DNA of 64,000 nucleotides from NCBI GenBank assembly GCA_964538375.1, contig CAZIFQ010000010.1, forward strand, positions 12,738-76,737. Direction: 5' to 3'. The notes under the pieces were generated by a model that made no database searches, had not been told where the DNA came from, and saw only the letters and a program-made list of their open reading frames with translations. Origin of the DNA: an uncultured Bacteroidaceae bacterium (lineage in GTDB: Bacteria > Bacteroidota > Bacteroidia > Bacteroidales > GCA-2748055). This document shows positions 27,276 through 46,084 of this stretch, in pieces (positions within the stretch are counted from its first letter, which is position 1; the number at the start of each line of letters is the position of its first letter). Made by a program: the position numbers and the translations under genes.

Positions 27276-27338
27276 TATTTATAATGTTTAGTTAACTAAT
27301 ATTTATTTATGGAAAGAGATTGATTGTATCGGAGAGAT

Positions 27339-27389
27339 ACTGCTTTAGCATTTTTTTTCCGTGGTTGCAATCAGTCAAATCATTCCACA
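27339..27389 (-). ncRNA. SAM-II class riboswitch
   Basis: Minus strand UGUGGAAUGAUUUGACUGAUUGCAACCACGGAAAAAAAAUGCUAAAGCAGU: P1 GUGG/CCAC, GAUUU, UUGCA, A-rich loop, GCUAAA, ACUG/CAGU pseudoknot; sits in the metK leader. Confidence 0.88.
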
Positions 27390-27431
27390 AAATTGATATA
27401 CAAAGTAAATCATTATTTGAATCTAAACAAA

Positions 27432-32112: not shown

Positions 32113-33555
32113 ATGCTTAAACAAAGACTTCAGCAAAAACTTTTACAAAAGTTATCGCCACAGCAGATTCAGATGATCAAGCTGCTGGAGATTCCCGCCA
32201 TACAGCTGGAGCAAAGGATCAAGAAGGAATTGGAAGAAAATCCTGTATTGGAAGAAGGGGCTGAGGACCAGTATACTGATGAGGATACAGATCCACTGGA
32301 CAGCACAGATCAGGAGGAATTTTCGCTCGAGGACTATATGCAGGATGATGAGATTCCTACCTATAAACTCCAGTCTCAGAACTACTCAAAAGATGATAAA
32401 CATGAGGAAATTCCTTTTTCACTGGGGAGCAGCTTCAAGGAGCAGTTAAGCGATCAGCTTGGACTCAGGAAACTCTCAGAAAAGCAAATACTACTGGCAG
32501 AATATATCATTGGTAATATTGACGATGACGGATATGTCAGGCGTGAATTAGAAGCGATCTCGGATGATCTTGCATTTGCATACGGAACCGAAACATCTTA
32601 TGAAGAACTGCATGAAGTATTGATGGTTATACAGGACTTTGATCCTGCAGGAGTCGGAGCAAGAAGTTTGCAGGAGTGCCTGATGCTGCAATTAAAAAGA
32701 AATGATATTGAGGATCCTGTGCATGAAACGGCATATAAAATTCTGAAATTCCATTTCAATGAATTTACAAACAAGCATTTCAACAAGATCATCCAGCGTT
32801 TATCTATTACCGAAGAGGAACTTAAGGAGTCTCTGGATGTAATACTGAAATTAAATCCAAAGCCGGGAGGAGCATTTGGAGATGCTCAAAGCAAATCATT
32901 TCACCAAATCGTGCCGGACTTTATCCTGGAAGTAAACGAAGGTGAATTTCAGCTTTATCTCAATTCAAACAATGTTCCAGAATTGCGGGTAAGTAAGACC
33001 TATTCTGAAATGTTGGAATCTTATAGTGCCAACAAAAAGAACGCAACAAAAGACGCCAAGGATGCCGTGACATTTGTAAAGCAGAAATTAGATTCTGCCA
33101 AGTGGTTTATCGATGCAATTCGCCAGAGACAAAACACCTTGTTGTCAACAATGGAGTCCATCCTTGAGTATCAATCGGCCTATTTTACTGAGGGGGATGA
33201 AACTATGATGCGCCCCATGATATTAAAAGATATAGCTGATATTACAGGGCTTGATATATCTACAATTTCAAGGGTAGTTAACAGCAAATATATTCAAACT
33301 CATTTTGGAATATTTCCATTGAAATACTTCTTCTCTGAAGGGATGCAAACTGATTCGGGAGAAGAGGTATCAACACGTGAAATAAAGAAAATCCTTCAGG
33401 ATTGTATCGATGGAGAAGATAAGCGTAAGCCGCTTACTGATGACCGGCTTGCAGTAATCTTACAAGAAAAAGGATATCAGATAGCTCGTCGGACCGTGGC
33501 AAAATACAGGGAACAGCTCAACTTACCGGTGGCACGATTGCGAAAAGAATTATAA
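32113..33555 (+). CDS. rpoN: RNA polymerase sigma-54 factor
   Basis: Q/L-rich region I, STISRV HTH, RpoN box ARRTVAKYRE. Confidence 0.98.
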   Translation: MLKQRLQQKLLQKLSPQQIQMIKLLEIPAIQLEQRIKKELEENPVLEEGAEDQYTDEDTDPLDSTDQEEFSLEDYMQDDEIPTYKLQSQNYSKDDKHEEIPFSLGSSFKEQLSDQLGLRKLSEKQILLAEYIIGNIDDDGYVRRELEAISDDLAFAYGTETSYEELHEVLMVIQDFDPAGVGARSLQECLMLQLKRNDIEDPVHETAYKILKFHFNEFTNKHFNKIIQRLSITEEELKESLDVILKLNPKPGGAFGDAQSKSFHQIVPDFILEVNEGEFQLYLNSNNVPELRVSKTYSEMLESYSANKKNATKDAKDAVTFVKQKLDSAKWFIDAIRQRQNTLLSTMESILEYQSAYFTEGDETMMRPMILKDIADITGLDISTISRVVNSKYIQTHFGIFPLKYFFSEGMQTDSGEEVSTREIKKILQDCIDGEDKRKPLTDDRLAVILQEKGYQIARRTVAKYREQLNLPVARLRKEL

Positions 33556-44222: not shown

Positions 44223-45212
44223 ATGGAAACGGTATTAAGCGGTATACGATCAACGGGAAATCTGCATTTGGGGAACTACTTCGGTGCAGTACAGAATTTT
44301 GTGAAAATGCAACATAAGTACAAATGTTTTTTTTTCATAGCTGATATTCATTCGCTTACTACCCATCCCAAGCCCGATAACCTGCATGATAATATTAGAA
44401 AAGTTCTTTCTGAATATATTGCCTGCGGGATTGATCCGGAGCTTGCTACCATATATATTCAAAGTGATATTCCTGAAATTTCTGAGCTCTACCTTTTGCT
44501 CAACATGAATGCATATGTTGGAGAGCTGGAGCGTACTACTACATTTAAAGAAAAAATCAGGAAACAGCCAGAAAACGTAAATGCCGGATTGCTCACATAT
44601 CCTGTTTTGATGGCGACTGATATTATCATTCACAATGCAGATAAAGTGCCGGTAGGAAAAGACCAGGAACAAAACCTTGAAATGGCTCGCAAGTTTGCCA
44701 AACGTTTTAATCATATGTATGGTGTGGAGTATTTTAAATTGCCTGAACCATTCAATTTTGGAAGTGATTTAGTAAAAGTGCCGGGATTAGACGGAACGGG
44801 TAAGATGGGTAAATCAGACGGAAATGGTGTTTTCCTGATTGATGAACCGGGCATCATCAGAAAAAAGGTGATGAGAGCAGTGACCGATTCAGGACCAACA
44901 TCTGAAAATTCACCCATGCCGGAACCTATCCAAAACTTATTCTACCTGATGGACCTCATGTCTGAAAAGGAGACTATTGAACATTATAAAAACGCTTACA
45001 ATGATTGTTCAATACGTTATGGTGATTTGAAAAAACAGTTGGCTGAAGACATAATTAAGTTTACAACTCCCATCAGAGAAAAGATTCTTGATGTATACAA
45101 TGATAGTGATTACCTGGGTAAAGTTGTGAAGAGAGGTGCTGAGCAAGCAAGAGAAAGCGCTTCTAAAACACTGAGGGATGTAAGAGAGATACTCGGCTAC
45201 AAACCCTTTTAA
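44223..45212 (+). CDS. trpS: tryptophan--tRNA ligase
   Basis: HLGN, YPVLMATDI, VPVGKDQ, KMGKS. Confidence 0.97.
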   Translation: METVLSGIRSTGNLHLGNYFGAVQNFVKMQHKYKCFFFIADIHSLTTHPKPDNLHDNIRKVLSEYIACGIDPELATIYIQSDIPEISELYLLLNMNAYVGELERTTTFKEKIRKQPENVNAGLLTYPVLMATDIIIHNADKVPVGKDQEQNLEMARKFAKRFNHMYGVEYFKLPEPFNFGSDLVKVPGLDGTGKMGKSDGNGVFLIDEPGIIRKKVMRAVTDSGPTSENSPMPEPIQNLFYLMDLMSEKETIEHYKNAYNDCSIRYGDLKKQLAEDIIKFTTPIREKILDVYNDSDYLGKVVKRGAEQARESASKTLRDVREILGYKPF

Positions 45213-45242
45213 AAATAAAGAGTCCGCCTCTGAGAGACGGAC
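45211..45242 (-). terminator. intrinsic terminator, minus polarity
   Basis: GTCCGTCTC-TCA-GAGGCGGAC-TCTTTATTTTT; the U-tract is only on the minus strand. Confidence 0.8.
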
Positions 45243-45285
45243 CGTGCCCCGAAATTTGTCAGGTATATGCTTGGATGAACTGTCA
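45211..45285 (-). ncRNA. candidate sigma54-dependent small RNA (about 70-75 nt)
   Basis: Bounded by a consensus sigma54 promoter (45296-45311) and a minus-strand terminator (45211-45242); no ATG ORF. Confidence 0.5.
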
Positions 45286-45295
45286 ACTAAAAAGA

Positions 45296-45311
45296 TGCAA
45301 ATTCTGTGCCA
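45296..45311 (-). promoter_or_regulatory. sigma54 -24/-12 promoter
   Basis: Minus strand TGGCAC-AGAAT-TTGCA, an exact match to TGGCAC-N5-TTGCW. Confidence 0.75.
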
Positions 45312-45406
45312 AAGTCTCGGGTTTGGGGGTCTTTTTTGTGTTTCTTAGCATGATTTCCCCCAATTCCAGTCTTTCCCCCATAGAAGGGAAAGGGTTGAGC
45401 ATATGC

Positions 45407-46084
45407 TTATACCCCCCAGTTCACCTCTTCAATGCCTTTCTCTCTTAAATACTCATTTGTTTTTGAGAAGTGCTTGCATCCGAAAAAACCATTGTATGCC
45501 GAAAAAGGTGAAGGATGAGCTGCTTCAAGTACAAGGTGTTTTGTTTCGTCGATGAGTGGTTTTTTCTGCTGGGCAAATCTTCCCCATAGAATAAATACCA
45601 CATTTTCCTTCTTTTGAGAAACAGTCTGAATGACTTTATTGGTGAACGTTTCCCATCCCTGCTTCTGATGTGATCCAGCTTGTGAAGCACGCACTGTGAG
45701 GGTTGCATTAAGCAGCAACACACCATTGCTGGCCCAGGATTCCAGGTTACCATGCGCGGGAACAGGCAGATTAAGGTCTGCATGAATTTCCTTGAATATA
45801 TTGACCAGGGAGGGAGGCGGTTTAATTCCCAATGGAACCGAAAAGCATAAGCCATGGGCTTGTCCTGTACCATGATATGGATCTTGGCCCAGGATTACCA
45901 CTTTCAGCTTGGACAGTGGTGTTTTATTGAATGCATTGAAGATAAGCGGACCCGGAGGATAGATAGTGTGCTGAATTCTTTCGGTAACAAGAAAGGCTTT
46001 TAGCTTTTGGAAATAGTCTGCCTGGAAGTCTTGCCACAAAGCATTTTTCCAGCTTTCATGTATCGTTGGATTAATACTGCTCAT
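45407..46084 (-). CDS. ung: uracil-DNA glycosylase family 1
   Basis: ILGQDPYH, PPSLVNI, GVLLLN, HPSP. Confidence 0.97.
   Translation of the reverse strand: MSSINPTIHESWKNALWQDFQADYFQKLKAFLVTERIQHTIYPPGPLIFNAFNKTPLSKLKVVILGQDPYHGTGQAHGLCFSVPLGIKPPPSLVNIFKEIHADLNLPVPAHGNLESWASNGVLLLNATLTVRASQAGSHQKQGWETFTNKVIQTVSQKKENVVFILWGRFAQQKKPLIDETKHLVLEAAHPSPFSAYNGFFGCKHFSKTNEYLREKGIEEVNWGV

Follow-up and report, generated by a model that had tools for sequence, protein, structure and literature searches.

CrcZ is one of the Proteobacterial small RNAs (sRNAs) that are transcribed from sigma-54 promoters. Qrr1–5 (LuxO) and GlmY/GlmZ (GlrR) belong to the same kind and, as far as the available text of the respective reports describes them, are short terminator-ended RNAs behind an orphan −24/−12 promoter (PMC3045617, PMC10162802, PMC3730234). 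In this study we analyzed a locus with the same arrangement in a stretch of 64,000 nucleotides (nt), referred to as the window, from the genome of an uncultured Bacteroidaceae bacterium of the order Bacteroidales (GCA_964538375.1, contig CAZIFQ010000010.1, positions 12,738 to 76,737 of the forward strand). The genes trpS and ung are separated by a gap of 194 nt, whose minus strand carries promoter, RNA body and terminator. Comparison with related genomes indicates that this element is very probably a real, conserved sRNA gene driven by a sigma-54 promoter. That the RNA would use its 5′ end for base pairing has, in our judgment, a little better than an even chance. For the combined reading, a conserved sRNA that is driven by a sigma-54 promoter and acts by 5′-end pairing, we estimate a probability of about 0.7.

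The RNA is a new family of a known general kind, the sigma-54 sRNAs. An earlier reading of the bare letters of this stretch, made without database searches (the sequence-only reading), had known of no described family that would match it, and the Rfam search bears this out. None of the covariance models in Rfam 15, including those of Qrr, GlmY/GlmZ, CrcZ and the Bacteroidota motifs, matched at the gathering score, and at E values up to 10 only two noise matches appeared (mir-3136, E 5.8; SOX2OT, E 6.3), so that no similarity in sequence or structure to the Proteobacterial sigma-54 sRNAs is evident. Unlike for those RNAs, neither conserved activator sites nor an adjacent gene for a bacterial enhancer-binding protein (bEBP) were found here. 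The Qrr siblings, according to the text available on them, are multicopy, and the RNA described here is likewise multicopy or tandem in some genomes.

Within the phylum Bacteroidota, the available part of a Flavobacterium psychrophilum transcriptome study lists the putative regulatory RNA Rfp36 under sigma-54-type (SM4) promoters, along with groESL, lon, dnaK, htpG, skp, gliding genes and others (PMC9723704). Rfp36 is thus, like the RNA studied here, a Bacteroidota RNA behind a sigma-54 motif, and the SM4 list, as far as it is given there, resembles the promoter set of the present genome (PMC9723704). A sigma-54 sRNA had been taken by the sequence-only reading to be without precedent in Bacteroidota; the listing of Rfp36 tempers this. 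For the order Bacteroidales, our literature search turned up no publication about a sigma-54 sRNA. According to the sequence-only reading, Bacteroidota lack Hfq.

Promoter, predicted transcript and terminator

The following features were assigned to the element:

45306–45311, minus strand: sigma-54 −24 element TGGCAC, with its GG at 45310–45309
45297–45300, minus strand: sigma-54 −12 element TTGC; the G at 45298 is invariant among orthologues, and the C varies (C/T/A)
45286–45296, minus strand: T-rich spacer of 11 nt between the −12 element and the start, fixed in length and variable in sequence (ungapped, unconserved columns in a 16-genome alignment)
45211–45285, minus strand: predicted small RNA of about 72–75 nt (~73 nt), with a predicted 5′ end at 45285/45284 and a predicted 3′ end in the U-tract
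45264–45284, minus strand: unpaired conserved 5′ region GACAGUUCAUCCAAGCAUAUA, a putative seed according to fold and alignment
45248–45263, minus strand: hairpin 1, CCUGA / UCGGG with a variable loop; 5 base pairs (bp), 45263–45259 with 45252–45248
45211–45243, minus strand: intrinsic terminator with a 10-bp stem (45243–45234 / 45230–45221) and a U-tract at 45220–45211

The two promoter elements are separated by the 5 nt AGAAT, and the exact sigma-54 box reported by the sequence-only reading is indeed present on the minus strand at 45311–45297. The strict pattern TGGCAC-N5-TTGC occurs once in the 64-kb window; in 100 dinucleotide-preserving shuffles, the mean number of matches was 0.04, with at least one match in 4 shuffles. 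Sigma-54 promoters usually start 12–13 nt past the −12 C, and the 5′ end of the RNA was placed by this distance. Past the spacer, the minus strand continues with UGACAGUUCAUCCAAGCAUAUACC, hairpin 1, GCAC, the 10-bp GC-rich hairpin and CUUUAUUUUU. A terminator scan found CTTTATTTTT directly 3′ of the terminator hairpin (45243–45221) on the minus strand only, which confirms the one-directional terminator of the earlier reading; its stem was counted here as 10 bp. The word UGACA, to which that reading had drawn attention, does occur twice in the transcript, but neither copy is conserved at the orthologous loci.

Contrary to the earlier statement that the gap holds no open reading frame (ORF) with an ATG start, a minus-strand ATG ORF of 39 amino acids (aa) spans the upstream region and the promoter (45402–45283). 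A further ORF of 25 aa with a TTG start lies inside the RNA (45286–45209, minus strand), and its existence in the window’s genome is what speaks for a locus that encodes a small protein. Yet relatives have TAA, CAA, CAT or other triplets in place of the TTG and carry 1-nt indels inside the frame, and the conservation of the region is structural instead of triplet-periodic. Neither of the two small ORFs is conserved, with relatives lacking the start codons and showing 1-nt indels. Considering the absence of a conserved start codon and these indels, the RNA is non-coding as judged from the alignment, and the small-protein explanation has next to no probability.

Conservation of the promoter and the RNA body

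The region 45150–45470 was used as BLAST query against 41 related genomes, 18 of which were matched. The 12 matches that cover the promoter begin at query positions 155–158, which correspond to window positions 45313–45316 and thus to the T’s preceding GGCAC, at the −24 box. Four other matches start about 30 nt later, within the RNA body, and two span the trpS end only. In an alignment of 16 loci, an unalignable upstream region is followed by TTTGGCA[C/T]-N4-TTTG, then by 14 ungapped but unconserved positions, and then by the conserved body, whose conservation sets in 1–3 nt past the predicted +1.

A covariance model (R1) was built from the RNA body only, with the promoter columns excluded. 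In the window’s genome it found the present locus as the sole real copy (89.7 bits, E 3.7e-16), and three further matches with E values of 0.03–0.56 are terminators only. Across the family, R1 matched 81 of 91 genomes, including 50 of the 54 high-quality ones and all 14 genera (14/14), nearly always in a single copy; no copy was found in the only other genome of the window’s genus, which is 88% complete. In the order sample, 12 of 151 genomes were matched, 10 of these matches being true, and eight genomes from other families within the order carry the RNA according to the body-only model. A second model, R2, was run on 150 other genomes of the class sample without a true copy; the single weak match there had neither the box nor the 5′ block. 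Since R2 has no true copy among these genomes outside the order, Rfp36, which is known by description only, and the RNA described here are probably unrelated families.

The promoter, which had no part in model R1, accompanies the body at each true copy. We read the flanks of 46 R1 matches. All 41 matches with the RNA 5′ block had the box in the form TGGCA[C/T]-N5-(T/C)TG at a constant distance upstream, always with a −24 element of the form TTGGCA[C/T], and 31 of these 41 were outside the seed alignment. The five matches without the 5′ block (two weak ones from the order sample and three weak ones from the window’s own genome) were also without the box. Divergent members of the family carry it as well (8/8, in one case as TGGTAT). 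A word search of metagenome contigs that used the body only returned 28 stretches, all on genomic contigs of at least 1.2 kb and 27 with sufficient upstream sequence. Among the latter, the box was present in 21 of the 21 stretches with the full RNA, and the six stretches without it were chance matches in coding sequence. Altogether, the box stood at the fixed distance in 60/60 true copies found by body-only queries, and in every copy listed the stem leads into a T-tract on the strand of the RNA. Matches of a promoter-plus-word pattern in Prevotella and in other phyla were rejected as chance (14 of the 80 listed loci were unmatched by R1).

The arrangement of promoter, core and terminator, whose conservation the sequence-only reading had named as a test of its proposal, was thus found across the family with a model blind to the promoter. 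Its proposal of an orphan sigma-54 promoter leading into a terminator-ended RNA of about 70–75 nt that would start near 45285 thereby gains strong comparative support from co-conservation and covariation. In genomes of other families, the RNA gene also occurs in tandem at a distance of about 150 nt, and every copy has a −24/−12 box to itself (L054/L064 on G145:C572, L056 on G034:C49, L128 and L158). The named records that contain the RNA are all metagenome-assembled genomes labelled ‘Bacteroidales bacterium’.

RNA structure and covariation

The predicted fold has a minimum free energy (MFE) of −21.2 kcal/mol (z −2.66), and the first 21–22 nt are unpaired in both the MFE and the centroid structure. 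This 5′ block is the most conserved block in alignment A1 and in the matches of the body model. The blocks conserved most widely are AUAUACC before hairpin 1 and GGGCAA after it. The arms of the terminator hairpin change in concert in the 16-locus alignment. Base pairing was tallied over 68 sequences fitted to the covariance model, and compensatory changes were found in 14 of 15 pairs (10/10 in the terminator and 4/5 in hairpin 1). Overall, 88.3% of the cells were paired, versus 75.3% in column shuffles, none of which reached the observed value (0/500); for hairpin 1 the share was 90.7%. When the partner was slid by one to three columns, at most 57% of the cells were paired.

The RybB and MicA sRNAs of enterobacteria serve in the sigma-E envelope-stress response and have a terminator and, right at the 5′ end, a conserved seed. 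They offer a working analogy only: a stress promoter of an alternative sigma factor, a 5′ seed and a terminator are shared with the RNA described here, whereas the sigma factor is another one, there is no homology, and here rpoC alone is a target candidate, specific to one clade.

Gene context

The neighboring genes are as follows:

44223–45212, plus strand: trpS (class I W/Y tRNA synthetase), the convergent neighbor downstream of the RNA
45407–46084, minus strand: ung (UDG superfamily), the upstream neighbor on the strand shared with the RNA

Context was counted over 87 distinct loci. The gene ung is the upstream same-strand neighbor at 54 of them, and in the window’s genome no canonical ung terminator is evident between 45407 and 45311. 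These two observations would fit an RNA that is a processed or read-through 3′ untranslated region of ung, with TGGCAC-N5-TTGC being part of that RNA or a chance match. However, the box is present in all true copies, including the 33/87 loci without an upstream ung, and the 14 nt from box to body are fixed in length and free in sequence, as in a promoter spacer. In some relatives (L024, L026), a terminator hairpin lies between ung and the box, and the same type of box precedes about 27 genes of the genome. Derivation from ung is therefore very improbable, and a transcript with its own sigma-54 promoter is the preferred explanation.

At 56/87 loci, among them five in genomes of other families that have no ung upstream, trpS is convergent within 400 nt, and the RNA terminator abuts or overlaps its stop codon. 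In the window, the final two positions of the U-tract overlap the stop codon of the opposite-strand trpS. Read in the direction of trpS, the terminator hairpin is not followed by a T-tract, and therefore trpS may read through antisense to the RNA. This geometry lends some credit to an element that acts on trpS in cis, by a shared terminator, read-through antisense transcription or local interference and duplex formation, and that has no targets in trans. Yet a pure cis-antisense element would leave the primary sequence unconstrained, and the 5′ block is kept across genera. In addition, trpS is not adjacent at 31/87 loci, and the tandem copies are located away from trpS. We regard an action on trpS in cis as quite unlikely and continue to favor an sRNA that works in trans. 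Mimicry of an anticodon by the word UCCAA beside trpS was also rejected, since divergent true copies, for example those in genomes G036 and G206, have no CCA.

Elsewhere in the window, a SAM-II (long-loop) riboswitch was detected at 27335–27394 on the minus strand, with 77 bits versus a gathering score of 44.

The sigma-54 system of the genome

The genome has one gene for sigma-54, which lies in the window as the earlier reading had stated:

about 32113–33555, plus strand: rpoN (sigma-54), the only copy in the genome, identified by a Sigma54_DBD match and in our own ORF table

The Sigma54_DBD match (G000:C10:45807-46283, 183.9 bits) falls in an open frame of 481 aa. Five bEBP proteins are encoded in the genome (Sigma54_activat, 219–239 bits). 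Three consist of a receiver (REC), an AAA+ and a helix-turn-helix (HTH) domain, one, encoded on C22, is an AAA+-HTH protein without the receiver domain, and one is a REC-AAA+ protein without the HTH. The gene for the HTH-less activator (G000:C6:52998-54182, plus strand) adjoins a Ppx/GppA gene. We considered its co-occurrence with the RNA, but a single orthologue of about 390–400 aa (61–82% identity) is present in 116/151 genomes of the order, and since it is distributed far more widely than the RNA, this comparison is non-discriminating. In the proposed mechanism, sigma-54 RNA polymerase would initiate near 45285 once one of the five bEBPs is active.

The pattern TGGCA[CT]-N5-TTG[CTA] has 82 sites genome-wide. 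Outside ORF cores, which leaves 14.6% of the genome, lie 35 of the 82 (binomial p 7e-10), and 27 sites precede an ORF of the same strand at a distance below 250 nt (18–220 nt). According to Pfam, the genes behind these promoters encode Hsp70, Hsp90, Lon, Hsp20, SecA, a type IX secretion system plug protein, thioredoxin-like, TPR and patatin-Omp85 proteins, and others; examples are the sites at C5:139597 (dnaK), C2:108138 (htpG), C2:61143 (lon), C13:36821 (hsp20) and C3:117703 (secA). The TTG[C/T/A] form of the −12 element of the RNA promoter matches that of the gene-proximal sigma-54-like promoters. The promoter set suggests that the heat-shock and proteostasis regulon of this lineage is sigma-54-driven. 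As envelope genes and dnaK, htpG, lon, hsp20 and secA stand behind promoters of this type as well, the RNA is plausibly part of a sigma-54 stress and envelope regulon and would form its non-coding arm.

Three further sigma-54-like promoters of the genome are orphans. The one at G000:C6:90905 (plus strand) adjoins a tRNA gene and has a strong terminator about 80–104 nt downstream, making it a second sRNA candidate. A hairpin lies about 60 nt downstream of the site at G000:C2:125192 (minus strand), and the site at G000:C1:72407 (minus strand) precedes a small signal-peptide-like ORF.

Upstream repeats and candidate activator sites

Upstream of the promoter, one more feature was considered:

45354–45380, minus strand: two direct repeats TGGGGGAAA (plus strand TTTCCCCCA), candidate activator sites of the sequence-only reading, not conserved

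The two plus-strand copies of TTTCCCCCA are located at 45354–45362 and 45372–45380, 18 nt apart. As for the idea that the promoter has its own activator sites, the repeats and the palindrome TTCCC-N8-GGGAA exist as described, but they are unconserved and missing near other sigma-54-like promoters. The motif GGGGGAA/TTCCCCC was found in 2/41 orthologous upstream regions of 260 nt, and at this place only in the window’s genome. The word TGGGGGAA has 107 copies in the genome, and none is near another sigma-54-like site. Runs of G5/C5 occur upstream of 7/35 intergenic sigma-54-like sites versus 10.6% of the background windows, which is a weak difference. In the largest genus, g2, the ung stop codon is only 5–15 nt away from the −24 box, and an enhancer would therefore sit inside ung.

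The word UGACA was rejected as an activator motif, as the count of TGTCA/TGACA upstream of the RNA is 0 and the word is unconserved in the orthologues. In the 185 nt upstream of two other sites, the same words occur three times (dnaK, C5:139597) and four times (hsp20, C13:36821), with a background mean of 0.33 and at least three occurrences in 1% of the windows. Possibly, TGTCA/TGACA is an activator site of the heat-shock subset.

Candidate targets

According to the proposed mechanism, the RNA would pair in trans with mRNAs via its 5′ end. A target scan revealed nothing notable at trpS, ung, rpoN or the bEBP genes. We searched for the exact complement of RNA nt 3–15, and later of nt 2–14, across the whole family. 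In rpoC (RNA_pol_Rpb1_1), a stretch of 13 nt at the LDELS codons is perfectly complementary to RNA nt 2–14 (G000:C26:35539-35552). This site is located about 610 nt into the gene (about nt 612–626), and the sequence TGGATGAACTGTC is exact in the rpoC of 16/16 genomes from g1 (2), g4 (13) and g6 (1). To avoid sequences selected by the pattern, 1.2 kb of rpoC were aligned from all 15 genomes of g1 and g4 (mean pairwise identity 81%). The invariant runs in this alignment comprise 350 of 1–2 nt, 19 of 3–6 nt and one of 13 nt, which is exactly the site. There, four consecutive synonymous positions are frozen, whereas nearly all other third positions vary. The predicted duplex with the RNA has −24 to −27.6 kcal/mol in g1, g4 and g6, versus −5.6 to −17.3 kcal/mol in most other genomes tested; the exact site in two g2 genomes gave −25.1 (G022) and −23.7 (G079) kcal/mol.

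For the clade of these three genera, rpoC mRNA would be the best candidate target, with RNA nt 2–14 pairing to the LDELS codons. Most genomes with the same seed lack the site, and such pairing therefore cannot explain the conservation of the seed across the family. We hold rpoC only tentatively as a real, clade-specific target of the RNA. The more specific proposal, that a sigma-54 sRNA pairs by its extreme 5′ end within the rpoC coding region and so links the stress programme to the supply of β′, is slightly more doubtful.

Other complements were discarded. A sodium:solute symporter gene (G000:C4:107767-109518) has a 13-nt and an 11-nt complement, which are lost in four orthologues, two of these in genomes with an identical seed. 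In nusG, the complement at the VDELS codons is exact in 14/49 genomes of g2. In the others, however, the codons for Leu and Val are free to vary, and g1 and g4 lack the site; it was treated as chance and as a useful null. Complements of nt 12–25, searched in g2 with one mismatch allowed, were scattered and revealed no conserved second site. Apart from these, a second exact complement of the RNA 5′ end, 14 nt long, occurs at G000:C7:88641-88654 (plus strand; duplex −29.2 kcal/mol). It lies within an ORF for a twin-arginine-signal protein without a Pfam match and was not seen at the orthologous places in g4.

A real and sigma-54-driven RNA could also bind or titrate a protein, for example an RNA-binding protein, instead of pairing. 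Such a role would agree with the lack of a conserved target common to the whole family in our searches, and with the position of AUAUACC and GGGCAA, which stand on either side of a structure, as is common for protein sites. It fits less well that the RNA has no repeated short motifs of the sponge type, that its longest conserved stretch is the unpaired one at the very 5′ terminus, and that the synonymous constraint in rpoC coincides exactly with the complement of nt 2–14. We consider protein binding unlikely, though the least so of the alternatives, and retain pairing by the 5′ end as the preferred mode of action.

Weighing the evidence

Several observations weigh against a sigma-54-driven, conserved sRNA that pairs by its 5′ end. 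With respect to expression, the public runs that hold the DNA of the window are labelled marine metagenome and none of them is an RNA run; expression, 5′ end, size and rpoN dependence of the RNA are inferred from sequence comparison. With respect to structure, the alignment used to count covariation was fitted to the model and leans towards structure. The sequences of alignment A2 were gathered by a pattern that fixes CAGTTCWTCC, so this block is bound to look conserved in A2. The raw MAFFT alignment has its terminator arms misaligned, and for this reason RNAalifold returned three pairs only from it. With respect to targets, a scan of 2743 start regions gave a best value of −24.4 versus −21.6 to −26.4 for five shuffled seeds and was thus no better than these. 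The rpoC site was found post hoc. In g2, which has the same seed, it was exact in one of six genomes sampled blind and in three of 49 searched by pattern, and complementarity in rpoC was absent in g3, g5, g7, g9, g11, g12, g13 and five other families.

Finally, no bEBP gene adjoins the RNA gene in any locus examined, and the orthologous upstream regions contain no conserved enhancer about 80–150 bp upstream. Given this lack of a conserved enhancer, the activator may bind lineage-specific sites or be the HTH-less REC-AAA+ protein. In other words, either the activator sites differ among lineages, or activation may be enhancer-independent with the HTH-less bEBP as a candidate.

Implications for the Bacteroidales

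Regulation by small RNAs is poorly charted in Bacteroidota, and the family described here adds an sRNA that was defined purely by comparative genomics and whose promoter class is unambiguous. Its covariance models could become an Rfam family, and for uncultured Bacteroidales from marine and sediment habitats the RNA is usable as a marker of the sigma-54 regulon. The promoter set of the genome suggests that sigma-54 drives chaperone and protease genes as well as envelope genes, in agreement with what the available part of the flavobacterium transcriptome study infers (PMC9723704). If the pairing with rpoC were true, an alternative sigma factor would feed back on the synthesis of the core polymerase, which would be unusual.

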